A stretch of DNA of 64,000 nt, taken from the NCBI GenBank assembly GCA_947630015.1, contig CANRFY010000003.1, forward strand, positions 61,413-125,412, in the 5' to 3' direction. The position numbers were made by a program, and so were the translations under genes. Each line of letters starts with the position of its first letter. The stretch's first letter is position 1. Below the pieces are notes generated by a model. The model did not search any database and had not been told where the DNA came from. It saw nothing but the letters and a program-made list of their open reading frames with translations. The DNA is from an uncultured Clostridia bacterium. Its GTDB lineage: Bacteria > Bacillota > Clostridia > Oscillospirales > CAG-272. Positions 677 through 12,992 of this stretch are shown one piece after another.

Positions 677-2539
677 ATGGATTACAAAAAATACGGAAGC
701 ATACTTAAAAGCGTATCGAAGCCGGCGAGATATACGGGCGGCGAGCGCGGTCAGATCATAAAGGATAAAAACGACGTCAAGTGCAGATTCGCGTTCTGCT
801 TTCCCGATACATATGAGATCGGGATGTCGAATCTCGGCGTCCGCATTTTGTACGGCGCGTTGAACAGCGAGCCGCACGTCTGGTGCGAGCGCGTGTACGC
901 GCCGTGGGTCGATATGCAGGAGCGCATGAGGGAATATAATATACCGCTTTGGGCGCACGAGAGCGGCGATCCGATCAGGGAATTCGACGTCGTCGCGTTC
1001 ACGCTCCAATATGAAATGTGCTATACGAACGTGCTTATGATGCTCGAGCTTGCGGGGATCCCGATCTTGGCAAAGGACAGGGGAGAGGCCGATCCGATCG
1101 TGATCGGCGGCGGCCCGTGCGCGTACAACGCGGAGCCGATGGCGGATTTCTTCGATATTTTCTCGATCGGAGAGGGCGAGGAAGCGCTGCCGGAGCTGAC
1201 GCGGCTCTATATAAGAATGAAGGAGACGGGCGATTACTCGCGCGAAAAATTCCTCTATGCGGCGGCGACTGAGCTTGAGGGGTTCTATGTCCCGTCGCTG
1301 TACCGCGTCGAATACGGCGCGGACGGCAAAATATCGGCGTTCGAGCCTGTCGACGGGCGCGTCCCGCGCCGCGTCAAAAAGCGCATAGTCGAAGATTTCG
1401 ATCACAGCTATTTTCCGACGAATCCCGTGATGCCGTATACGGAGGTTGTTCACGACCGCATAATGCTCGAGGTGTTCCGCGGCTGCATACGAGGCTGCCG
1501 CTTCTGTCAGGCCGGCATGACGTATCGTCCCGTGCGCGACAGATCGGTCGAGACGCTGTGCCGTCAGGCGGAGGAAATGTACAAAAACACGGGCTACGAC
1601 GAGATATCGCTGACGTCGCTCGCGATCGACGATTATACGTGCGTCGACAGACTGACCGATGAGCTGATAAAATGGACGAACGACAACAAAATATCGCTGT
1701 CGCTGCCGTCGCTGCGCGCCGACAGCTTTACGCGCGAGCTGATGGCGAAGATAAGCGGAGTTCGTTCGTCGGGGCTGACGTTCGCGCCGGAGGCGGGAAC
1801 GCAGAGACTGCGCGACGCGATAAACAAAAACGTCCGCGAAGAGGATATAATGAACGCGGTCCACATCGCGTTCGAGGCCGGAAAATCGCAGGTAAAGCTG
1901 TATTTCATGATCGGTCTGCCGACCGAGACAGACGAGGATGTGATCGGGATCGCGCAGCTCGCGGAGCGCGTGATCGTAGAATACTACAAAACGGAGGGCC
2001 GCAATAAGAAGCGCCCGCCGCAGGTGACGATCTCGACGGCGTGCTTCATCCCAAAGCCGAAAACGCCGTTTCAGTGGGCGCCGCAGATCACGCCGGATGA
2101 ATTCGTGCGCCGCCAGCGCCTGATCGCGGACAACATCCACGACAGACGGATCAAATACAATTTCCACGATTCCGAAGTGTCGTTCGTCGAGGCCGTGCTT
2201 GCGCGAGGCGACAGGCGTCTGTCGCGCGTGATGCTCGAAATGCACGCGCGAGGCGCGTGCTTCGACGCGTGGGACGAGCATTTCTCATACGAAAAATGGC
2301 GCGAGGCGTTCGACACCGCCGGCGTCGATCCCGATTTCTACGCGCGCCGCGAGCGCACGCCGGATGAGATATTGCCGTGGGACGTCATAGACGTCGGCGT
2401 GACGGATAAATTTTTGCTGCGCGAATGGGAGGCGGCGAAGAGATCGGAGCCGTCGTTGAACTGCCGCGAGCATTGTTCGGGCTGCGGCGCATATGTATAC
2501 GGAGGTGATACGCTGTGTCGGAAAATGAGAGAGAAGTAA
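677..2539 (+). CDS. TIGR03960-type B12-binding-domain radical SAM protein
   Basis: N-terminal KPARYTGGE and FPDTYEIGMSNLG; CxxxCxxC motif (CIRGCRFC); C-terminal Cys cluster CREHCSGCG; adjacent to a TIGR03936-type gene. Confidence 0.88.
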   Translation: MDYKKYGSILKSVSKPARYTGGERGQIIKDKNDVKCRFAFCFPDTYEIGMSNLGVRILYGALNSEPHVWCERVYAPWVDMQERMREYNIPLWAHESGDPIREFDVVAFTLQYEMCYTNVLMMLELAGIPILAKDRGEADPIVIGGGPCAYNAEPMADFFDIFSIGEGEEALPELTRLYIRMKETGDYSREKFLYAAATELEGFYVPSLYRVEYGADGKISAFEPVDGRVPRRVKKRIVEDFDHSYFPTNPVMPYTEVVHDRIMLEVFRGCIRGCRFCQAGMTYRPVRDRSVETLCRQAEEMYKNTGYDEISLTSLAIDDYTCVDRLTDELIKWTNDNKISLSLPSLRADSFTRELMAKISGVRSSGLTFAPEAGTQRLRDAINKNVREEDIMNAVHIAFEAGKSQVKLYFMIGLPTETDEDVIGIAQLAERVIVEYYKTEGRNKKRPPQVTISTACFIPKPKTPFQWAPQITPDEFVRRQRLIADNIHDRRIKYNFHDSEVSFVEAVLARGDRRLSRVMLEMHARGACFDAWDEHFSYEKWREAFDTAGVDPDFYARRERTPDEILPWDVIDVGVTDKFLLREWEAAKRSEPSLNCREHCSGCGAYVYGGDTLCRKMREK

Positions 2540-2541
2540 AA

Positions 2542-3237
2542 ATGTCGGCGACAGCGGCAACGTCGCCTGTGCGCGTCGCGTTCACGAAAACAGGCGCGCT
2601 GTCGTTCATTTCGCATCTCGATCTGATGCGGACCGTAACGCGTATGCTGATCCGCGCCGACATCGGGATATATTATACGGAGGGGTTCAATCCGCATCCG
2701 AAGCTCGTGTTCGCACTGCCGCTTTCGGTCGGCGTCGAGAGCAATTACGAGCTGTTCGACGTAAAGGTGGCGGGCGAGGGCGCGGACTGCGCGCTGATTG
2801 CGGAGCGTCTGCGCTGCGAGTCGCCCGACGACATAAAAATTTCAGACGTCTACGCGCCGACGAGAAAATTCCGCGATATCGCATATTCGGATTACGAGAT
2901 CGTAATTTGCGGCGGAAATTGCTGCGCCGATCCGATCGCGGCGGTCGAGCGGATGATGTCGGGGCCTGTGATCGAGAAAAAGCGCACGAAATCGGGCGAG
3001 ATCGAATGCGATATCCGCCCGTTCATAAAATCGCTCGAATGCGAGGGCGGGGGACGCGAGCTGCGCATAAAAACGCGGCTCGACGCCGCGTCGGAGTCGT
3101 ATCTGAATCCCGAATACGTCGTAAAAGCGGTGACGAACGCGACGGGGATCACGCTTGACGATATATCGCCGGACGGCGACTCGTATTCGATCACGCGCAC
3201 GGGCATCTTCGACGCCAACGGCGCCTTGTTTAGGTAG
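2542..3237 (+). CDS. TIGR03936/DUF2344-type radical SAM-linked protein
   Basis: FISHLDLMR...EGFNPHPKLVFALPLSVG signature; ATG 2 nt after the upstream stop. Confidence 0.85.
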   Translation: MSATAATSPVRVAFTKTGALSFISHLDLMRTVTRMLIRADIGIYYTEGFNPHPKLVFALPLSVGVESNYELFDVKVAGEGADCALIAERLRCESPDDIKISDVYAPTRKFRDIAYSDYEIVICGGNCCADPIAAVERMMSGPVIEKKRTKSGEIECDIRPFIKSLECEGGGRELRIKTRLDAASESYLNPEYVVKAVTNATGITLDDISPDGDSYSITRTGIFDANGALFR

Positions 3238-3241
3238 GATT

Positions 3242-3410
3242 ATGGTTTTTGGGGCAGCGCCCCAAACCCCACTTAAGGAAACTTTTTGAAAAAAGTTCCC
3301 TTAAGAATCCTTCAAAAACTTTTATTACAGGGTATAAAGGGCAAGAGTGTTAGATTCTGCATCTGACATTCGTGCGTCGACGAAGTAGTCGCGCGAGCGC
3401 GAACACCGAT
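3242..3410 (+). repeat. Structured dispersed repeat, copy A (about 170 bp)
   Basis: ATGGTTTTTGGGGC-AGC-GCCCC, CTTAAGG...CCTTAAG hairpin, ACTTTTATTACA, and 3' GCGAACACCGAT; aligns by eye with 3584-3751 (-) and 12761-12940 (+). Confidence 0.9.
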
Positions 3411-3455
3411 GGTTTAGAGCAAATGCGCTTATCTCTGCGCCGCGCGTTCATATTG

Positions 3456-3491
3456 CCAAAACAAAAAGGGGTGTCGCCCCTTTTTGTTTGG
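3456..3491. terminator. Bidirectional intrinsic terminator
   Basis: CCAAAACAAAAAGGGG-TGTCG-CCCCTTTTTGTTTGG between convergent genes. Confidence 0.8.
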
Positions 3492-3503
3492 TAGAGAATG
3501 TAT

Positions 3504-3583
3504 TGTAATAAAAGCTTTGAAGGGATTGTTAAGGAATTTCTTAAAAGTTCCCCCGAAGCTGGGTACGGGGCTTTGCCCCAAAA
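3504..3583 (-). repeat. Structured dispersed repeat, copy B (5' half only, in tandem after copy C)
   Basis: Reverse complement reads TTTTGGGGC-AAA-GCCCC...CCTTAACAATCCCTTCAAAGCTTTTATTACA. Confidence 0.85.
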
Positions 3584-3751
3584 ATCGGTGTTCGCGCTTG
3601 CGCGACTACTTCGTAGGCGCATAAACGCGCATCGCAAAGGCGAACACACTCGCACAATAATCCATGTAATAAAAGTTTTGCGGGGATTCTTAAGGGGGCT
3701 TTTTTAAAAGCCCCCCTTAAGCGGGGGTTGGGGCAGCGCCCCAAAAACCAT
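3584..3751 (-). repeat. Structured dispersed repeat, copy C (full)
   Basis: Reverse complement reads ATGGTTTTTGGGGC-GCT-GCCCC...CTTAAGGGGGGCTTTTAAAAAAGCCCCCTTAAG...ACTTTTATTACA...GTGTTCGC...GCGAACACCGAT. Confidence 0.9.
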
Positions 3752-3754
3752 CCA

Positions 3755-4126
3755 TCAAAGGATGTTGCTGAGCGAGGGACGCGACAGATCCTTTATATGG
3801 CGCAGTTCGCTTTTCAGAAGTCTGCACGCGCCGTAATATTCCGCGTCCGTAGCGCCTTTTTGTGACAGAACGTCGAGCGAGTCGATGAGCGTTTCGGTGC
3901 GCGTCACCTCTTTTCGGTGAACGGATATGCACACCGTGAATTTTGCCTCATCCCAGACGCGCCTGATCTGCTCCACGGCATACGCGCGTCCGTCCGGATC
4001 GGCCGCGTCCGCCTCCGCGGCGAGCGCGATCAGCCTGTCGGCGTATTCGTCCGTGTAAACGGACGCGACGATCGTGATCGACAAAAGCGCCGCGATCAGA
4101 ACGATCGCGAAAACAAACGATTTCAT
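3755..4126 (-). CDS. DUF4363-type membrane-anchored protein
   Basis: N-terminal hydrophobic helix, W...ISVHRKEV motif, about 120 aa, directly downstream of a DUF421 gene as commonly seen in Clostridia. Confidence 0.7.
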   Translation of the reverse strand: MKSFVFAIVLIAALLSITIVASVYTDEYADRLIALAAEADAADPDGRAYAVEQIRRVWDEAKFTVCISVHRKEVTRTETLIDSLDVLSQKGATDAEYYGACRLLKSELRHIKDLSRPSLSNIL

Positions 4127-4148
4127 TTCAAATTACCACAGGCGCGGC

Positions 4149-4838
4149 TCAGCCGCGCTCCTTTTTTATAAGTGTGACCTCGTCGCTGTCGTTGCAGAGC
4201 AGAAGCAGAACGTCGCGCCTTTCGCATTTCGCCATGCGCAACTGATGCTCGACGAACGCGCGCGTCTTCCGCGCCGCCTTTATGTTCTGCTCGATCAGGT
4301 CGCCGTCGATGATGAGCGCGTGCGCGACGCCGCTGTCAGGCACAGTCTGTCCCGACATAACGTCGGCGATCTCGCCGATATTGGGCGGACGTTTGTCGGC
4401 GCGCGGGAAAACGGACAGCTTGCCGTCGTCCTCGACGATGGCATAGTACACATCGGAGATGTCGCCGTAACCGTTCTGACGAAGCTGACCGAGCAGCTCG
4501 CTCGTGCTGATGCGGAGCCGCCGCAGCTCGCGCTGATCGAGGACGCCGCGGCAGATCAAAATGCTCGGACGCCCCGAAAAAACGCGGCGCACAGCGCCGC
4601 TTTTGACCGACAAAAACGACGTTATCACCTCGAGCGATACGATCAGCGCGACGGGCGCGGCCATATAGTAGAGCGGGATGTCGGGATCGGAGATCGGCAA
4701 GGCGGCAAGCTCGGACAATAAAAGCGTCGTGACAAGCTCCGACAGCTCGAACTCGCCGAGCTGCCGCTTTCCCATCAGCTTCATCGAAAGCTCGAGTATG
4801 CAGTATATGATCAACGTCCGTATGAGAACGGTCGGCAT
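4149..4838 (-). CDS. DUF421 (YetF/YcaP-like) membrane protein
   Basis: MGKRQLGEFELSELV...; YYAIVEDDGKLSV; GGAGGTG RBS before the ATG at 4838. Confidence 0.88.
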   Translation of the reverse strand: MPTVLIRTLIIYCILELSMKLMGKRQLGEFELSELVTTLLLSELAALPISDPDIPLYYMAAPVALIVSLEVITSFLSVKSGAVRRVFSGRPSILICRGVLDQRELRRLRISTSELLGQLRQNGYGDISDVYYAIVEDDGKLSVFPRADKRPPNIGEIADVMSGQTVPDSGVAHALIIDGDLIEQNIKAARKTRAFVEHQLRMAKCERRDVLLLLCNDSDEVTLIKKERG

Positions 4839-4933
4839 ATGAACACCTCCGACGGCAGTTATCACGATTATGATGCGCATAAAAAGCGAAAATTATGCGC
4901 GGCGAGGCGACCGCGAATATTTTTCAAAAGCTA

Positions 4934-4962
4934 TTGCCATAATCAAATATTTGAGATATAAT
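4934..4962 (+). promoter_or_regulatory. SigA-type promoter for the COG2426 gene and metK
   Basis: TTGCCA-17 nt-TATAAT. Confidence 0.7.
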
Positions 4963-5000
4963 ATAATCTGGCCTTGTGCCGAATTTATCCGGAGTTATTT

Positions 5001-5462
5001 ATGCTTGATCTGTTGTACGTATTTTTCATATCGATGGTACCGTTTATCGAGATACGCGGCTCCGTGCCGGCAGGCGCGCTGCTCGGGATTCATCCCGCGC
5101 TCTGCTATGCGGTGTCCGTACTCGGCAATATGCTGCCCGTACCGTTTATTTTGCTTTTCATTAAAAAGATACTCGCATGGATGAAAAAGATCCCGAAGCT
5201 CGAAAAGATCGCCTTGTGGATCGAGGCGCACGGAGCTAAACGGTCGGACAAGGTGACGAGATACGCGACGCTCGGTCTCGCGCTTTTCGTCGGGATACCG
5301 CTGCCCGGGACGGGCGCGTGGACGGGATCGCTGATCGCTGCGCTGCTCGATATGAAATTCGGCTACGCGATCTTGTCGGTATTCTGCGGGGTGCTGTTCG
5401 CCGGACTTATAATGAGCGGCATTTCATACGGATTTCTCGGATTTCTCAGCTTTTTATCGTGA
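5001..5462 (+). CDS. COG2426 / small multidrug export family membrane protein
   Basis: SMVPFIEIRGSVP, GNMLPVPFIL and FVGIPLPGTGAWTG motifs; GGAG before the ATG at 5001. Confidence 0.85.
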   Translation: MLDLLYVFFISMVPFIEIRGSVPAGALLGIHPALCYAVSVLGNMLPVPFILLFIKKILAWMKKIPKLEKIALWIEAHGAKRSDKVTRYATLGLALFVGIPLPGTGAWTGSLIAALLDMKFGYAILSVFCGVLFAGLIMSGISYGFLGFLSFLS

Positions 5463-5483
5463 TATTCACGGGAGGGATACAGA

Positions 5484-6674
5484 ATGGCTAAAAAAAGACT
5501 TTTCACATCCGAATCTGTGACGGAGGGACATCCCGATAAGATATCGGATCAGATATCGGACGCAATACTCGACGAGCTTTTAGCTCGCGATCCGATGAGC
5601 CGCGCTGCGGTCGAGACGTTCTGCACGACGGGCTTCGTCATGGTAATGGGCGAGGTCACGACGTCCGCATACGTCGACATTCAGTCGACGGTTCGCGACG
5701 TCGTCCGCTCGATCGGATACGATCGCGCAAAATACGGATTTGACTGCGATACGTGCGCCGTCGTCAGCTCGATACATGAGCAAAGCCCCGACATCGCGCT
5801 CGGCGTGGACAAGTCCGCAGAGGCGAAGGCGGGCGAGATCACGGATAAATACGACACCGGCGCGGGAGATCAGGGCATGATGTTCGGATACGCGTGCGAC
5901 GAGACGCCGGAGCTTATGCCGCTGCCGATCTCGCTTTCGCATAAGCTGTGCCGGAGGCTTGCGGCTCTGCGCAAGAGCAGCGAGCTTGATTATCTGCGTC
6001 CCGACGGAAAATCGCAGGTCACGGTCGAATACGACGAAAACGACCGCCCCGTGCGCATCGATACGATCGTCGTATCGACGCAGCATTCGCCCGAGGCAAG
6101 CCTTGAAACGATACGCCGCGACGTGATCGAACGCGTCATAAAGCCGACGATCGACGCCGATATGATGGACGAGAACACGAAGATATACGTCAACCCTACG
6201 GGCAGATTCGTGATCGGCGGCCCCGCCGGCGACAGCGGCCTTACGGGACGTAAGATCATCGTCGACACATACGGCGGCTACGCGCGTCACGGCGGCGGAT
6301 CGTTCTCCGGCAAGGACCCGACAAAGGTCGACAGAACGGCGACATACGCGGCGCGTTACATCGCTAAAAACATAGTCGCTGCGGGACTCGCGCGCAAATG
6401 CGAGATTCAGATCGCATACGCGATCGGCGTGGCGAAGCCCGTTTCCGTGATGATCGAGACGTTCGGCACCGCGAACGTAGACGAGGACGAGCTTGGACGC
6501 TACATCATGGAACACGTCGATCTGCGTCCCGCGTATTTGATCGAGAAATTCGATCTGCGCCGTCCGATATACAGACAGCTTGCGGCATACGGCCATATGG
6601 GACGCGAGGATCTCGGCGTTCTCTGGGAGAAGACCGATCTTGCCGACGAGCTGAGAGCGGCGTTTAACAAATAA
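5484..6674 (+). CDS. metK: S-adenosylmethionine synthetase
   Basis: [34 protein letters not shown]. Confidence 0.98.
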
Positions 6675-6726
6675 TAACTCTCACCGGCAAGTCAAAGCAC
6701 AAATCGATAAAATTGACGGAGGAAGC

Positions 6727-6764
6727 GCGGGGGAGACGCTTTGCGCGCAAAGCGTCTCCCCCGC
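6727..6764. repeat. Perfect 38-bp zero-spacer palindrome
   Basis: GCGGGGGAGACGCTTTGCG|CGCAAAGCGTCTCCCCCGC; no U-tract follows. Confidence 0.9.
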
Positions 6765-6779
6765 TGAAAACAGCGGGAT

Positions 6780-9017
6780 ATGGACGAGCCTGTAACGATC
6801 AGCGGCGTCGTTGAAAATATAATATATCGCAGCGACGATACGGGATATACCGTATGCGACGTGGAATCGGACGCGGGCGAATTCGTCACCGCCGTCGGCG
6901 TAATGCCGCACGTATCCGAGGGCGAATCCGTCAAGCTCTACGGGAATTGGACGCTGCACGCGAGCTTCGGACGCCAGTTCCGCGTCGAGAGCGCGGAGGC
7001 GTGCCTCCCCGTCGAGGCGACGGAGATAATGCGATATTTAGCCTCCGGCAGCGTGAAGGGCGTAGGCCCCGTTACGGCGAAGCGAATTGTGCAGATGTAC
7101 GGCGCCGACACGTTCGACGTGATCGAGAATCACCCCGACTGGCTTGCCGAGGTGAACGGCATATCGAAAAAACGCGCCGCCGAGATACACGACAGCTTTA
7201 TCGAGCATACGGGATCGCGCTCCGTCATGATGTTCTGCCGCGAATATTTCGGACCGGCGACGTCGATGAAAATATACAAGGAATGGGGCGCGGCCGCCGT
7301 CGATATAATCAGGAAAAATCCGTACAGACTTTGCGGCGAGATAAGCGGGATAGGCTTTACGAAGGCGGACGAGATCGCGCTGGCGCTCGGCGTCCCCGCC
7401 GACAGCTCGGAGCGTATCGAGGGCGCGATCGTATATTATCTCGTGCAGAACGCGAACGTGAACGGCCATGTATGTATGCCGGAGGACGAGGTCGCGGACG
7501 GAACGGCGGCGCTTCTACATATCGACAGGGAAAAGGTGCGGTCGTCAATATCGAGCATGACGGGACGCAGAAAGCTCGTGATCGACGACGGGATGTGCTA
7601 TCTCGATACGTATTATGCGGCGGAAACGTCGATAGCGAAGCGCCTATGCACGCTTGACAGGATGTGTCCGGCAGTCAATTCCGACGACGCGGAGCGGTTC
7701 ATCCGCATACTCGAGCTAAAATACGATATCGAATACGCGCCGCTCCAGCGGCAGGCAATAACGGACGCTCTTCGCGGCGGCGTCATGGTGCTGACGGGCA
7801 GCCCGGGAACGGGAAAGACGACAGTCGTGAAAGCGCTGATAGAGATTTTCCGCAGGATGGGACTCGAGAATATCGAGCTGGCGGCGCCGACGGGACGCGC
7901 CGCGAAGCGGATGAGCGAGGCCACCGGATCAGACGCGAGAACGATCCACAGACTGCTCGAAATGGAGTACAACGACGGATCGTATCCGCGGTTCACGCGC
8001 GACGAGCATAATCAGCTCGAGGCTGACGCGGTGATCGTCGACGAATCGTCAATGATAGACGTGATGCTGATGAACGCGCTGCTCGCCGCGATACGCCCGG
8101 GCGCGCGGCTGATCCTGATCGGCGACTCGAATCAATTGCCGTCGGTCGGCGCGGGAAACGTGCTGCACGATATAATCGCGTCGGGCGCGATCCATACGGT
8201 TTGCCTGTCTGAGATATTCCGTCAGGCAAAATCGAGCCGCATCATAACGAACGCGTCGATGATAAACGAAGGCCGGTATCCGGTGCTGACAGACAAGAGC
8301 GGCGACTTTTTCTTTCTTTACCGCAGAAGCGACGATTCTATCGCATCTACCGTCGTCGATCTGTGCGCGTCGCGGCTTCCGGCCGCATACGGCGACGAGA
8401 TCGCGGACGGGATACAGGTCATAACTCCGTCGCGGCGCGGAGCCGCCGGCACGGACGCACTCAACGCGGCGCTTCAGGAGCGCTTGAATCCGCCGTCGCC
8501 GAATAAGCGCGAGCATAAATCGCGCGAGATCGTGTTCCGCGAGGGCGACCGCGTGATGCAGACGAAAAACAATTATAAGCTCGAATGGTACCGCGACGGC
8601 GGCGTCAGCGCGATCGGGGACGAACCCGACGGCATCGGCGTATTCAACGGCGATATCGGCAGGATAGAGCGCATCGAGCCGGAGAACGACCGCATGGTGA
8701 TCATCTTCGACGACAGGCGCGTCTACTACGATTTCGCGCTCGACGGCGAGCTTGAACACGCATTCGCGATCACGGTGCATAAAAGCCAGGGAAGCGAATA
8801 TCCGGTCGTAATAATCCCCGTATACGGATGTCCGCCGCAGCTGATGACGCGCCGTTTGCTCTATACGGCGATCACGCGCGCGTCCAAGATGGCGATACTC
8901 GTCGGCAGAGACGATATCGTTATGCGGATGGTGGACGGAGTGACGGACGATATGAAGCACACCGGCCTCGAAAAACGGATACGCGAGCAGTTCTCACGCG
9001 CCGGAGGCGCGTTATGA
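6780..9017 (+). CDS. recD2: ATP-dependent RecD2-like DNA helicase
   Basis: N-terminal OB and HhH region (GIGFTKADEIA); Walker A GSPGTGKTT; VDESSMID; AITVHKSQGSEY; LYTAITRA. Confidence 0.95.
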   Translation: MDEPVTISGVVENIIYRSDDTGYTVCDVESDAGEFVTAVGVMPHVSEGESVKLYGNWTLHASFGRQFRVESAEACLPVEATEIMRYLASGSVKGVGPVTAKRIVQMYGADTFDVIENHPDWLAEVNGISKKRAAEIHDSFIEHTGSRSVMMFCREYFGPATSMKIYKEWGAAAVDIIRKNPYRLCGEISGIGFTKADEIALALGVPADSSERIEGAIVYYLVQNANVNGHVCMPEDEVADGTAALLHIDREKVRSSISSMTGRRKLVIDDGMCYLDTYYAAETSIAKRLCTLDRMCPAVNSDDAERFIRILELKYDIEYAPLQRQAITDALRGGVMVLTGSPGTGKTTVVKALIEIFRRMGLENIELAAPTGRAAKRMSEATGSDARTIHRLLEMEYNDGSYPRFTRDEHNQLEADAVIVDESSMIDVMLMNALLAAIRPGARLILIGDSNQLPSVGAGNVLHDIIASGAIHTVCLSEIFRQAKSSRIITNASMINEGRYPVLTDKSGDFFFLYRRSDDSIASTVVDLCASRLPAAYGDEIADGIQVITPSRRGAAGTDALNAALQERLNPPSPNKREHKSREIVFREGDRVMQTKNNYKLEWYRDGGVSAIGDEPDGIGVFNGDIGRIERIEPENDRMVIIFDDRRVYYDFALDGELEHAFAITVHKSQGSEYPVVIIPVYGCPPQLMTRRLLYTAITRASKMAILVGRDDIVMRMVDGVTDDMKHTGLEKRIREQFSRAGGAL

Positions 9018-9835
9018 GCGCCGAAAACGGACGCGGTATTGTTGGCGCCGTCCGCTGGGCATGGCGCGCGGCGTCGGAATTTCTGTATCCGCCGCGATGC
9101 GTATGCTGCCGCGGCGAGGCTCCTGTCGGCGCGGACGCCGGCAGATACGCGATGCTGGCCGATCCCGATTCAGTGTCGAGGGGATGCCTGTGCGCGCGGT
9201 GCCTGTCTGATCTGGAGACGTCGAAAAACGAACTGTGCAGCATCTGCGGGCGGCCGTATTGCGAATGCGAATGCGCGCCGGAGGCGCTCGTCTCGATCGG
9301 GATCGACGCTTGCGGCTGCTGCTTTTCATACGACAAGGGACGGCGCGGATGCGCGTCGTCAAGGCTCATTTATTCGATAAAAAGCACGGAGAACAGGGAC
9401 AGCATCAGCTTTGCGGCGAGCCTTTTGGCCGAGCGGATCAGACGCGGCGGCGATTCTGCGATATCGAACGCGGTTTTGACATTTGCACCGAGGCGGAGCC
9501 GGTCCGTGCGCGAGCATGGCGGCGACCACATGATGATGACGGCGAAGCAGCTGTCGCGGCTGCTCGGATGCGAGATGATATGCGCGTTCAAGAATACGGC
9601 GCGGGACGCGCAGAAGACGAAATCGGCGGCGGAGCGCGCCGAATCGGCGTCGGAATCTGTCAGGCTGAGACGCGGGATAAGCGAAAAAATATCACAAAGG
9701 CGCGTCATTTTGATCGACGATATAATAACGACAGGCTCGACGCTGTCCGCGTGCGCGTCGCTTTTATACGACGCCGGCGCGGATTCCGTGTCGGTATATG
9801 CGCTTGCAAAGACGAAACGGTCGAAAAAGGAATAA
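9014..9835 (+). CDS. comF: ComF family protein (zinc ribbon plus phosphoribosyltransferase-like domain)
   Basis: LYPPRCVCC...CARC...CSICG; PRT motif ILIDDIITTGSTL; GGAGG RBS with an ATGA overlap with recD2. Confidence 0.85.
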   Translation: MSAENGRGIVGAVRWAWRAASEFLYPPRCVCCRGEAPVGADAGRYAMLADPDSVSRGCLCARCLSDLETSKNELCSICGRPYCECECAPEALVSIGIDACGCCFSYDKGRRGCASSRLIYSIKSTENRDSISFAASLLAERIRRGGDSAISNAVLTFAPRRSRSVREHGGDHMMMTAKQLSRLLGCEMICAFKNTARDAQKTKSAAERAESASESVRLRRGISEKISQRRVILIDDIITTGSTLSACASLLYDAGADSVSVYALAKTKRSKKE

Positions 9836-9875
9836 AAAGGCAGCAACACGTCGGAATTATGCGCCCTTTGCATAC

Positions 9876-9904
9876 TTGAAAATCGCGCGTGCATCATATA
9901 TAAT
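9876..9904 (+). promoter_or_regulatory. SigA-type promoter upstream of the mreB-like gene
   Basis: TTGAAA-17 nt-TATAAT. Confidence 0.7.
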
Positions 9905-9961
9905 TAAAGGGAATATCCATGCGCCGCGAACGCGGCTCGATTATATAAAAGGCAGAAAATA

Positions 9962-10990
9962 ATGTTTCAGAGGGATATAGGTATCGACCTCGGCACGGCA
10001 ACGGTCCTTGTCTACGTAAAGGGCAAGGGGATCGTGCTTAAGGAGCCGTCGGTCGTGGCGATAGATAAAAATACGGACAGAATACTGAAGGTCGGCAGGG
10101 AAGCGCAGCAGATGCTGGGACGCACGCCGGGCAATATAGTGGCGATCCGACCGCTCCGCGACGGCGTCATAAGCCAATACGAGATCACCCTTCGCATGAT
10201 ACAGCATTTCATACGTCAGGCGAACGGCCCGATCGTGTTCAAGCCGCGCGTCATGATATGCGTACCGAGCGGGATCACGGAGGTCGAGGAGCGCGCCGTC
10301 GTCGACGCGGCGACGCAGGCCGGCGCGAAAAAGACGTATCTGATCGAGGAGCCGGTCGCAGCCGCGATCGGCGCGGGACTCGATATATCGCTGCCGAACG
10401 GCAACATGGTGATCGACATCGGCGGCGGCACGACTGATATCGCAGTCATATCGCTGGGCGGCGTCGTCGTGTCGGAATCGATCAAGATCGCGGGCGATAA
10501 ATTCGACGAGGCCATAATCAGATACGTGCGCAGAAAGTACAACGTCCTGATCGGCGAGCGCACCGCCGAGGCGATCAAGATCGCGATCGGATCGGTGTGG
10601 AACCGCGAGGAGCGCAAATACATCGACGTCAAGGGGCGCTGTCTCATACAGGGACTGCCAAAGATGATACGCGTCTGGTCGGACGAGATGATCGAGGCGC
10701 TCGAGGAGCCTATAACCTCGATTGTGGAGGCCGTATGCGCCGTTATCGAACGGACGCCGCCGGAGCTGATCGGCGACGTCGTCGCAAACGGCATCGTCAT
10801 GACGGGCGGCGGCAGTCTGCTCTACGGTCTTGACAATCTCATCGCAAACGCGACGGGGATACCGACGCGCGTCGCCGACAAGGCGATATCGTGCGTCGCG
10901 CTCGGAACGGGCAAATCGCTCGACAATATTTCGATGATCCCCGAAGGCGCAATCAATATTTCGCGTTCGCGCACGGAGCAGTTCGGCTGA
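9962..10990 (+). CDS. mreB: MreB-family rod-shape protein (Mbl-like; no mreC/mreD adjacent)
   Basis: IGIDLGTA, EPSVVA, RPLRDGVI, DIGGGTTD, GGGSLL. Confidence 0.93.
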   Translation: MFQRDIGIDLGTATVLVYVKGKGIVLKEPSVVAIDKNTDRILKVGREAQQMLGRTPGNIVAIRPLRDGVISQYEITLRMIQHFIRQANGPIVFKPRVMICVPSGITEVEERAVVDAATQAGAKKTYLIEEPVAAAIGAGLDISLPNGNMVIDIGGGTTDIAVISLGGVVVSESIKIAGDKFDEAIIRYVRRKYNVLIGERTAEAIKIAIGSVWNREERKYIDVKGRCLIQGLPKMIRVWSDEMIEALEEPITSIVEAVCAVIERTPPELIGDVVANGIVMTGGGSLLYGLDNLIANATGIPTRVADKAISCVALGTGKSLDNISMIPEGAINISRSRTEQFG

Positions 10991-11061
10991 GGCGCGAACT
11001 CGGGCGGGAATATTTGCTGCTTCCCGCATCGACCGGCACGGCCGGTCATGGAAATGAATAT

Positions 11062-11108
11062 AAAACCGTTCGCATTTCACCGGCAGACCGGCGCGCGAAC
11101 GGTTTTTT
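11062..11108 (+). terminator. Branched intrinsic terminator-like hairpin after mreB
   Basis: AAAACCGTTCGC...GCGAACGGTTTTTT with an inner CCGG/CCGG hairpin. Confidence 0.6.
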
Positions 11109-11206
11109 GCTGTATTTGCCGGCGGCAAATCACTTGCCGCGTCGAGCAGTCGGCTCTTTACCGCCGGCGATTTTGCCGCGCCGCCGCGTTCGATCGAAAA
11201 TAAATG

Positions 11207-11235
11207 TAGACGCCGCGCGATTTATGTGGTAAAAT
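11207..11235 (+). promoter_or_regulatory. SigA-type promoter with extended -10, upstream of the fucosidase
   Basis: TAGACG-17 nt-TAAAAT, with TG at the extended -10 position. Confidence 0.55.
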
Positions 11236-11267
11236 TATAAAAAAGCACGCGATCAAAGGAGCATGAT

Positions 11268-12758
11268 ATGAACGCTATGCAGAAAAGCTTCCGCGAGGAT
11301 TACCTGCGGCGTATCGACGAGGTGATCGGGCGCGGCCGGTATAAGCCCGATTGGAATTCGCTGTCGCAGTATGAGACGCCGCGCTGGTTCCGCGACGCGA
11401 AATTTGGCATATTCATCCACTGGGGCGTTTACAGCGTACCGGCGTTTGCAAACGAATGGTACTCGCGTTCAATGTACATCGAGGGGACGCGCGAGTTCGA
11501 GCATCACGTAAAGACATACGGACCGCAAAAGGATTTCGGCTACAAGGATTTCATCCCGATGTTCAAGGCGGAAAAATTCAGCGCCGACGAATGGGCGGAG
11601 CTGTTCTCCGAGGCGGGCGCGAAATACGTCGTCCCCGTCGCGGAGCATCACGACGGGTTCCAGATGTACAAAAGCGAGCTGTCGGAGTGGAACGCGTACA
11701 ACATGGGGCCGTGCCGCGACACTCTCGGCGAGCTGAAATCCGCGTGCGAGCGCCGCGGGATGAATATCTGCGCGTCGTCGCACAGAGTCGAGCATTGGTT
11801 CTTCATGGGACACGGCAGGGATTTCGACTCCGACATCAAAGAGCCGATGGAGTGCGGCGATTTCTACTGGCCGGCGATGCCGGAGCCGAATCATCAGGAT
11901 TTATTCAGCACGCCGACGCCGTCGGACGAATATCTGACTGACTGGCTGCTTCGCTGCTGCGAGATCGTGGACAGATACGCGCCGCGCCTCATCTATTTCG
12001 ACTGGTGGATACAGCACAGCGCCGTCAAGCCGTATCTTATGAAATTTGCCGCGTACTACTATGACAGAGCGGCCGAGATGGGATACGAGCCGGTCATATG
12101 CTACAAGCACGACGCGTTCGCGTTCGGATGCGCGACGGTCGACGTCGAGCGCGGTCAGTTTGCGGACTGCAAGCCGTATCCGTGGCAGACGGACACGGCG
12201 TGCGCGTACAATTCATGGTGCTACACGGAGAACAATCACTTCAAGGACCCGATCTCGATAATCCGCGATTTTGTCGATATCGTATCGAAGAACGGGAATC
12301 TGCTCTTAAACGTCGGTCCGCGCGCGGACGGCACGATCACGGCGGAGGACGCGAACATTCTTTACACGATCGGAAAATGGCTCAAAGCGAACGGCGAGGC
12401 GATCTACGGCACGCGCCCGTGGCGCGTATCGGCGGAGGGGCCGACGGCGATACCGGAGGGGCAGTTCACGGACGGCGCGAAGAAGGATTTCACATCCGAC
12501 GACGTGAGATATACGTGCCGCGGCGACTCGATTTACGCGTTCGTGATGAAGTATCCCGAATCGGGCGAGGTGAAATTCCCCGCGCTCGGGGAGAGGGACG
12601 CGTCGTCGAAGCCGAATTTCCACGGCATCGTCAAGAACGTCGCCGTCCTCGGCTCGGACGAAACTCCCGAATGGGAAAGACGCGAGGACGCGCTGCACGT
12701 TAAGACGAAATCAGTAAAAAGCGACGCCCCCGTCGCGTTCCGCATCACGGTCAGATGA
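11268..12758 (+). CDS. Alpha-L-fucosidase, GH29 (cytoplasmic, no signal peptide)
   Basis: WFRDAKFGIFIHWGVYSVPA, AEHHDGF, YFDWW, SKNGNLLLNVGPRADG. Confidence 0.9.
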   Translation: MNAMQKSFREDYLRRIDEVIGRGRYKPDWNSLSQYETPRWFRDAKFGIFIHWGVYSVPAFANEWYSRSMYIEGTREFEHHVKTYGPQKDFGYKDFIPMFKAEKFSADEWAELFSEAGAKYVVPVAEHHDGFQMYKSELSEWNAYNMGPCRDTLGELKSACERRGMNICASSHRVEHWFFMGHGRDFDSDIKEPMECGDFYWPAMPEPNHQDLFSTPTPSDEYLTDWLLRCCEIVDRYAPRLIYFDWWIQHSAVKPYLMKFAAYYYDRAAEMGYEPVICYKHDAFAFGCATVDVERGQFADCKPYPWQTDTACAYNSWCYTENNHFKDPISIIRDFVDIVSKNGNLLLNVGPRADGTITAEDANILYTIGKWLKANGEAIYGTRPWRVSAEGPTAIPEGQFTDGAKKDFTSDDVRYTCRGDSIYAFVMKYPESGEVKFPALGERDASSKPNFHGIVKNVAVLGSDETPEWERREDALHVKTKSVKSDAPVAFRITVR

Positions 12759-12760
12759 GG

Positions 12761-12940
12761 ATGGTTTTTTGGGGCTTTGCCCCGCACCCCGCTTAAGGGG
12801 AACTTTTGAATGAAAGTCGAACTTTCCGCAAGCGGAAAGTTTCCTTAACAATCCCTTCAAAACTTTTATTACAAGGGGTATTTGGCAAGTGTGTTCGCCT
12901 TTGCGTCGCACGTTCGTGCGACGGCGAAGCGAACGCCGAT
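12761..12940 (+). repeat. Structured dispersed repeat, copy D (full, with an extra internal hairpin)
   Basis: ATGGTTTTTTGGGGC-TTT-GCCCC...CTTAAGG...CCTTAACAATCCCTTCAAAACTTTTATTACA...GTGTTCGC...GCGAACGCCGAT; starts 2 nt after the fucosidase stop. Confidence 0.9.
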
Positions 12941-12959
12941 TTGATCACATTCACGACAG

Positions 12960-12992
12960 AAAAAAACGAGGCGCGGGGCGCCTCGTTTTTTT
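12960..12992. terminator. Bidirectional intrinsic terminator
   Basis: AAAAAAACGAGGCGC-GGG-GCGCCTCGTTTTTTT, a perfect 15-bp stem between convergent genes. Confidence 0.88.

Follow-up and report, generated by a model that had tools for sequence, protein, structure and literature searches.

A stretch of 64,000 nucleotides (nt) from an uncultured gut Clostridia bacterium (GenBank contig CANRFY010000003.1, positions 61,413 to 125,412), hereafter called the window, contains several copies of a structured repeat located directly behind genes. These repeats are probably best understood as a new, lineage-expanded family of non-coding mosaic extragenic repeats of the REP/BIME/BOX kind, whose copies persist in the genus in sense orientation within 3' untranslated regions (3' UTRs), where they would be transcribed and could affect the mRNA. 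An initial annotation of the window had described four copies; their positions were right and the copies align over their whole length.

The genome to which the window belongs (G000; 2.39 Mb in 69 contigs, 55.8% G+C, assembly 98% complete) gave 160 nhmmer matches at 102 loci, with almost no overlap with open reading frames (ORFs). Profile searches split the repeat unit into an L module of about 90 nt and an R module of about 82 nt, and separate models recovered 133 L and 128 R modules, corresponding to 0.83% of the genome. The modules are arranged head to tail in LR, LRLR, LRR, LRRR and LRRRR arrays, the 3' ends of which are ragged and often consist of a truncated module. The family, which counts some 260 modules in mixed L/R arrays spread over about 100 intergenic loci, is high-copy, extragenic, hairpin-forming and organized in mosaic clusters, and the genome-wide profile search thus supports the earlier view of the repeats as dispersed, non-coding and non-autonomous, of the REP/BIME kind. 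The L module is composed, in this order, of an AT-rich leader, a first hairpin (H1), three bases, a C-run, a second hairpin (H2), a tail and then AAAACTTT(TA/CC)TTACA. H1 reads GGGGC-nnn-GCCCC or GGGGT-TTC-ACCCC and its stem is extended by a TTY/RAA pair (consensus TTY-GGGGY-nnn-RCCCC-RAA, with the C-run 3 nt further on). H2, which exists in more than a dozen sequence variants, is perfectly palindromic over 14-18 bp and usually has CTTAAG at its borders. The R module corresponds to GGGTTATnGGGCAAGTGTGTTCGCC....CGACGAAGTAGTCGCGCGAGCGCGAACACCGAT, and its conservation is limited to sequence.

The family appears to be new. A search of the whole 64-kb window against Rfam, a comparison called for by the initial annotation, gave no match at the gathering score, and under an E-value threshold the best scores in 3200-3800 were 12-19 bits, versus gathering scores of 34-290; the repeat family is therefore absent from Rfam at both thresholds. 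Plasmid and phage collections searched with blastn in distant mode gave no match, and literature searches found no description of the family.

Several variations of the L module were observed. Two small perfect hairpins, GAACTTTCCGCAAGCGGAAAGTT and GCAGATGCnnCGCATCTGC, recur as inserts within H2, and the unit then grows to 185-213 nt; such compound H2 are found in the window (12792-12849) and at other G000 sites, for example C8:18181, C18:8184 and C2:87473. In some L modules H2 is exactly missing (..CCCCGCT followed by AAGAATCC..) and H1 and the tail are kept, as seen in G000 in the 3' flank of C12:39661-39824 and at C2:82003-82321, C1:146080-146284 and C6:35048. Either the palindrome was deleted precisely between TAAG repeats or these sites are empty 'slots'. 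Many arrays have the leader TTTATTATATTC in common (for instance at G000 C8:11318, C15:24363 and C9:56066); its other strand, GAATATAATAAA, contains a perfect -10 box that faces outwards, to the upstream gene. No -35 partner was seen for such an outward promoter (TATAAT) on the antisense strand of the leader, and the scanner reports none.

The placement of the repeats was analyzed for the 87 arrays with an intact 5' end, using our own codon-usage gene calls. The upstream gene is co-oriented in 66 of the 87 arrays, and 48 of them start no more than 15 nt from a co-oriented stop codon, versus 10.3 expected under uniform insertion in the same gaps, and a count of 48 was reached in 0/20,000 simulations. 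Among array ends located within 30 nt of a gene 3' end, 39 are in sense and 2 in antisense. Convergent gaps, which represent 12% of all gaps, yet harbour 41 of the 87 arrays, and a terminator-like site is present within 150 nt downstream of 51% of arrays versus 21% of gene ends. A random placement with respect to stop codon and strand, the contrary outcome named in the initial annotation, was thus not seen (48/87 versus 10.3; 39:2), and its prediction that the copies are transcribed as 3' UTRs is supported by their position. Of 57 arrays, 47 have H1 2-22 nt past the stop codon, the median being 14 nt, a spread that rules out a fixed offset; the natural stop-to-terminator distance of this genome has a median of about 21 nt. 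The safest reading is that the arrays lie inside short 3' UTRs, always in sense, and not that they target the stop codon. With the same H1 end, a minority of arrays adjoin the ribosome-binding site (RBS) of an opposite-strand gene. The stop codon preceding the arrays is TAG for 8 of 57 genes, a mild enrichment over the genome as a whole (113/1880, 6%).

One gap of the window, between the stop codons at 3235-3237 and 3755-3757, holds a plus and a minus array, each trailing its own gene in opposite directions, and replication direction can therefore not set the orientation. Since orientation follows the adjacent gene and not replication, a constraint acting at the level of the transcript, or coupled to transcription, seems likely.

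The initial annotation had also proposed that structure is kept while sequence drifts. This is true for the L module and unsupported for R. In a gap-free alignment of 26 distinct 85-nt L modules, compared with 500 shuffles, H2 is paired in 100% of cells; 9 of its 14 pairs changed on both sides and none on one side only, and 0/500 shuffles reached the observed covariation values. The H1 pair 8-22 alternates between C-G (15 modules) and U-A (9). The H1 stem with its variable loop and the compensatory change in H2 are confirmed for the L module, as is the extra branch of copy D. The proposed closing stem of the R module (GTGTTCGC/GCGAACAC) and its inner hairpins are pairable in 88% of cells, with a covariation of 0.164 versus 0.162 in shuffled alignments (211/500); for this 3' domain covariation equals that of shuffles, and copy A reads GTGTTAGA. 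The L alignment contains no G-U pairs, and this lack of intermediates is unlike what is usually seen in slowly evolving RNA helices. In decayed L copies, A.C mismatches outnumber G.T, an excess of sense-strand wobble was not found, and copy A folds as well on one strand as on the other (z -4.8 and -4.6), so that the earlier argument built on G-U pairs working only in sense does not generalize. Of the idea of a structured RNA under selection, what stands is that the L hairpins are kept by two-sided change; wobble, strand asymmetry and covariation in R did not appear. Perfect palindromes with no wobble and no strand asymmetry point to a strand-neutral or DNA-level maintenance of the L module.

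A second regularity was found in the stretch that follows H2. This tail reads as the 3' arm of H2 backwards, which makes it the parallel complement of the 5' arm, and is neither a direct nor an inverted copy: ..AAGGGGAA-C-TTTT goes with ..TCCCTT-C-AAAA, GGAAC-TTCTT with CTTC-AAGAA, and GGGGAC-TCTT with CCCCT-GAGAA. The G/A run of the 5' arm has its mirror image in a C/T run of the tail, and the runs agree in length and order. Over the 39 unique arm/tail combinations of the window's genome the mirror model was the best (z = 6.3, 0/2000 permutations as high), and the G and A counts of the arm predict the C and T counts of the tail (rho 0.71 and 0.63). Among 29 combinations from other genera the mirror model alone was significant (z = 3.1; direct-repeat z = -0.2). 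The two other possibilities tried, a tail that is a direct or an inverted copy of the H2 arm, both fit worse. H1 follows the same design, GGGG(C)-nnn-(G)CCCC-nnA-CCCC, and in relatives carrying an A in the H1 stem the third block is parallel (GAGG/CCTC/CTCC, GGGA/TCCC/CCCT and GGGGA/TCCCC/CCCCT); asymmetric H1 cores comprise 7 parallel cases, 0 direct copies and 9 that are neither. One subfamily, in G115, departs from the mirror rule. To our knowledge mirror repeats are made by no replication or repair process, and a structural or binding constraint is thus needed to account for them. The sequence corresponds to the definition of potential intrastrand triplexes (Hoyne/Maher classes I-IV; ITxF), by which a purine-rich arm, its complementary pyrimidine arm and a third block mirroring the latter follow one another on the same strand with short loops in between; the H2 arms are not homopurine throughout, and the linker is very short. 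The sense strand falls in class III and the complementary strand in class I. Each L module is, to judge from its sequence, a double potential intrastrand triplex.

This pattern could be read at the level of RNA. The repeats would then be functional elements of the 3' UTR in which H1 and H2, with pyrimidine runs lying in their major grooves (C+.G-C and U.A-U), form two triple helices behind the stop codon and make the mRNA 3' end more stable or act on termination and on the release of ribosomes. In agreement with such a function, orientation tracks the gene (39 sense versus 2 antisense), the first hairpin lies at a median of 14 nt past the stop, and the tail, or third strand, covaries in parallel with the purine arm in several genera. 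The succession of purine arm, pyrimidine arm and pyrimidine tail (class III) is present on the sense strand only, and the pyrimidine triplex motif can form in RNA, which the purine motif cannot (PMC4666352); an arm-arm-mirror order restricted to the sense strand would explain the survival of copies in the gene's own orientation. However, the L modules are devoid of G-U pairs and show more A.C than G.T mismatches, both strands of copy A fold equally well, and in other genera the element is found outside 3' UTRs. Moreover, C+.G-C triples in runs require low pH; purine-motif triples, which RNA does not form, would be needed for the A-run half of the tail; and the outer CTTAAG part allows almost no linker. 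We consider this explanation quite unlikely. In its most specific form, L would be an mRNA 3'-end element made of two consecutive pyrimidine-motif helices, each a hairpin with its third strand, 2-22 nt behind the stop codon, and here our doubts are a little stronger still. If true, the three-way covariation in several genera would be the footprint of selection on base triples, and the element a prokaryotic counterpart of eukaryotic and viral RNA triple-helix stability elements.

The same features could also be maintained in DNA, as in a repeat of the BoxC/PIT type. Hairpins (cruciforms), or a purine-motif triplex of the antisense (template) strand, would form in single-stranded or supercoiled DNA and act as hotspots of recombination or replication pausing, and the repeats would spread and be reshuffled by template switching and gene conversion. 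H2 changes on both sides at once and never on one, as strand-switch correction or gene conversion would give; arm/tail cassettes have been swapped between orthologous copies, some L modules lack H2 precisely, and array ends are ragged. There is also a published precedent in E. coli, where unstable loci are marked by G/C-rich repeats whose intrastrand triplexes form in vitro (PMC4666352). On the other hand, BoxC/TMECO repeats show no orientation bias or fixed distance to genes and the present family is 95% sense, whereas a purely DNA element should ignore the direction of the neighbouring gene; the two opposite arrays in one gap argue against replication direction as the cause. A DNA-level element of this kind seems unlikely to us.

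By BLAST, the full unit is confined to the window's genome, and a few congeners have the L part. In 151 genomes of the order, representing 97 genera, L was searched with a covariance model (R1), counting up to 29 copies per genome, and was found in 18 of the 151 genomes and 13 of the 97 genera. R was absent from all L-positive genomes searched, each lineage having its own companion in units of 124-200 nt. In the sister genomes G016, G009 and G015, most L lie directly behind stop codons, often between two operon genes. Three-unit tandem arrays of L with their own companions were noticed in G015 (L176, on C3) and G008 (L177, on C5), with periods of about 200 and 124 nt, respectively; the first unit of the G015 array is located 9 nt behind a TGA stop. 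These results indicate that L is the old conserved core of a superfamily widespread in the order, and that the companion module is lineage-specific. At six loci in G115, G166 and G123 (L108, L109 and L111-L114), a gene on the opposite strand has its start codon or RBS 12-37 nt from the H1 end; judging by these sequences, the element would fill the 5' region of the gene in antisense.

Returning to the favoured reading, a gene-oriented family persisting in 3' UTRs, several points weigh against it. The gene calls are home-made, and 21 of the 87 arrays have an upstream gene on the opposite strand. Stop proximity may merely follow from lying upstream of a terminator. In other genera, L is found after terminators (G109, G073) or beside the start codons of opposite-strand genes (G115, G166, G123), and the stop-codon habit is thus genus-specific and not a property of L itself. 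The arm/tail variants are linked cassettes, and part of the covariation is subfamily inheritance and not a set of independent events. Finally, no empty site was seen at nucleotide resolution.

The genes that flank the copies show them to be insertions, some of them old. The C-terminus of the DUF2344 protein (..FR*) and its stop position are identical in 18 congeners without the repeat, where a terminator or the next gene comes after it, the whole gap being 15 nt in one congener; with such a 15-nt gap the C-terminus of the DUF4363 protein (NIL*/NIM*) is likewise kept. The stop codons are thus native and the 517 bp between the two genes lineage-specific, and a stop codon supplied by the element is ruled out for both genes. 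Searches for empty sites in the same species gave nothing by exact-protein look-up, and a metagenome scan gave only relatives of 55% identity or less. Orthologous copies are shared with the sister genome G016 (about 83% protein identity), which implies that R predates the split and was expanded afterwards. The first pair stands behind ..AYIGKQP*TGA (G000 C2:181001-181161 and L165 on G016 C59), and the second is an H2-less L plus R (G000 C58:2300-2428 and L168 on G016 C16). The members of the first pair differ in concert in the closing pair of H1, in the two arms of H2 and in the tail, and R is present in G000 and not in G016; on sequence grounds, the concerted difference looks as if gene conversion had replaced the cassette as a whole. 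For 68 of the 71 L and 75 of the 95 R modules, the most closely related module lies at a different locus, and one H2/tail variant is present in 24 identical copies at different loci. Besides tandem duplication, units therefore move, or convert one another, between loci.

The initial annotation had suggested that this movement could be due to mobilization in trans of a transposable element of the miniature inverted-repeat type (MITE) or REP-like element by an HUH (Y1) transposase or RAYT. The G/C-rich hairpin at one end with its conserved flank, the dispersed copies and the patchy occurrence across families, which would suit horizontal spread, could be expected of such an element. However, no terminal inverted repeats were found: the unit starts with TTTTCGGGGC.. 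and ends with ..GCGCGAACACCGAT, the two ends are not complementary, and the inverted repeats given by a repeat search are whole copies on opposite strands. Target duplications were not apparent in 86 arrays either, since the longest word shared by the two flanks is distributed as in shuffled pairs; the ragged 3' ends are a caveat to this comparison. The sole PF01797 (Y1) match in this 98% complete assembly, where a gene lying in a gap could have been missed, is a truncated, 81-amino-acid (aa) C-terminal fragment located beside another insertion sequence (IS) and a relaxase, with no repeat nearby, and the mobilizer flanked by copies that had been anticipated was not found. Y1 genes are unrelated to L across the order (7 of 18 L-positive genomes versus 57 of 151 overall), and the L-rich G062, G115 and G109 have none. 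Orientation, in addition, tracks transcription and not replication. Mobilization of this type is very improbable. Apart from this mobilizer, the MITE label and a conserved structure of the 3' domain, the main points of the initial annotation stand. The region carrying the Y1 fragment (L001, G000 C50:5897-8650) encodes an rve-family IS transposase (323 aa), the 81-aa IS200-type fragment and a MobA-like relaxase N-terminus, and from its gene content appears to be what is left of a mobile element that has nothing to do with the repeats.

The loci of the window illustrate this organization. The full copies start 2-4 nt behind a stop codon, in sense and upstream of terminator-like palindromes (3463-3485 and 12960-12992), as first described. 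The DUF2344 gene (2515-3237, plus strand; Pfam PF10105) ends with a native TAG stop at 3235-3237, according to the ORF list and to a C-terminus kept in congeners. It is followed on the same strand by the L module of copy A (3240-3329; nhmmer L model, E 1.7e-18), with an extended H1, TTTGGGGC-AGC-GCCCCAAA, at 3248-3266, the C-run at 3267-3270, the H2 palindrome at 3272-3305 and the mirror tail at 3306-3319, then CTTTTATTACA. The R module of copy A (3334-3413, plus strand; nhmmer R model, E 4e-20) shows sequence conservation, and the closing stem that it might form is broken here, reading GTGTTAGA. A truncated second R, corresponding to model positions 4-43, occupies 3412-3451 on the plus strand (nhmmer, E 1.9e-4); this segment had been taken for a linker and is actually a partial R module, on which bear the R-to-R junctions (..CACCGATGGTTTAGGGC..) found repeatedly across the genome. 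Next comes a bidirectional terminator-like palindrome, AAAAAGGGG-TGTCG-CCCCTTTTT (3463-3485, both strands), read directly and common to the convergent DUF2344 and DUF4363 genes; it was missed by the terminator consensus scanner because its T-run is inside the stem. On the minus strand, copy B (3504-3590; nhmmer, L positions 5-91, E 3.2e-12) is the last unit of the array. It had been called partial but is a whole L module with a decayed H2 palindrome and not half a unit. Copy C comprises an R module (3582-3662, minus strand; nhmmer, E 3.2e-21) and an L module (3665-3753, minus strand; nhmmer, E 7.9e-20) with H1 at 3728-3745, H2 at 3689-3721 and the tail at 3675-3688. The DUF4363 gene (3755-4126, minus strand; Pfam PF14276) has its TGA stop at 3755-3757, and the L module of copy C starts 1 nt behind it; the gap between the DUF2344 gene and this convergent gene amounts to 517 bp. 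At the second locus, the alpha-L-fucosidase gene (11268-12758, plus strand; TGA stop at 12756-12758) is followed by the L module of copy D (12761-12873, plus strand; nhmmer, E 3.2e-16), whose H2 is compound (12792-12849) and holds the extra hairpin GAACTTTCCGCAAGCGGAAAGTT, with the tail at 12850-12863. The R module of copy D (12876-12941, plus strand; nhmmer, E 2.8e-12) has an internal deletion. An intrinsic terminator-like site, A7-CGAGGCG-CGGGG-CGCCTCG-T7 (12960-12992, plus strand), detected by the scanner at 12973-12986 followed by a T-run and read directly, sits between the fucosidase gene and the convergent uxaC.

Several known repeat families resemble the one described here. Many REPs of E. 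coli reportedly lie no further than about 15 nt from stop codons and can stall terminating ribosomes, an observation attributed to Liang, Rudd and Deutscher (2015). The REP/BIME sequences of Enterobacteria and Pseudomonas also combine G/C-rich extragenic hairpins with other motifs in mosaic clusters and reach hundreds of copies; they are strictly intergenic, prefer convergent gaps and affect mRNA stability (PMC3184786). REPs are, however, 35-nt palindromes in alternating orientation, whereas the present units are direct repeats of 160-170 nt arranged head to tail, with a near-absolute orientation relative to genes, no GTAG-type tetranucleotide, no RAYT gene and no sequence similarity to REPs. 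The BoxC/PIT/TMECO repeats (Hoyne and Maher 2000; Holder et al. 2015, PMC4666352) share with our family an intergenic succession of arm, arm and mirror block that fits a triplex, conserved stems with varying loops, a copy number that is patchy among close relatives and the lack of an associated transposase. Among bacterial cases, this E. coli family has been studied most. TMECO forms a triplex in vitro and is associated with unstable loci, with no orientation bias or defined distance to genes (PMC4666352). It has a single G/C triplex of 9 nt, of the purine type (class II), with no strand bias, 10-310 nt from ORFs. By contrast, each L module here has two putative triplex motifs, one of them a mixed-sequence palindrome of 14-18 bp, is of class III on the sense strand and gene-oriented, and lies within larger tandem units.

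Two Firmicute repeats are also comparable. BOX of Streptococcus pneumoniae (boxA-boxB(n)-boxC) is likewise modular, with a variable number of internal modules; it is non-coding, transcribed with neighbouring genes and can modulate their expression (PMC3184786). It is thought to be mobilized by an IS transposase and has defined terminal modules, whereas the arrays studied here have ragged 3' ends and no evident mobilizer and lie behind stop codons. The bcr1 repeat of the Bacillus cereus group is similar in size (about 155 bp), is transcribed and keeps a two-hairpin fold by compensatory changes, and its genomic distribution is not conserved between strains (PMC3184786). It differs by flanking 5-bp direct repeats, a mobile-element signature of which none was seen here, and by the tandem arrays and mirror tails, which are present in our family and not reported for bcr1.

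The history of this lineage-expanded family of extragenic repeats can be summarized as follows. L is paired with a companion in each lineage, the companion in the window's genus being R, which expanded in the species of the window. New loci would be reached by copy-and-paste or recombination, with no target duplication and no dedicated transposase, and local growth would proceed as head-to-tail arrays. Copies would persist almost only between stop codon and terminator, oriented with the gene; the arrays would then be transcribed within the 3' UTR, to which they would add very stable hairpins. Sense copies may be harmless or mildly useful, for instance as a barrier to 3' decay, or antisense copies may be purged.

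About 1% of the genome and many gene ends of this organism are made of the element, which in metagenome-assembled genomes appears as unexplained 3' UTR, as breaks in contigs and as small RNAs that are falsely called. In two respects the family is more than a routine REP-like one, namely in its near-absolute sense orientation behind stop codons and in the three-way covariation of arm, arm and mirror tail across genera. Together these bear on whether intrastrand triple helices have a biological role in bacteria, a question open since the work on PIT/BoxC in E. coli. If the fold forms in RNA, it would represent a new way of building the 3' ends of bacterial mRNAs, and if it forms only in DNA, the family would offer a natural system for structure-driven repeat spread without a transposase.

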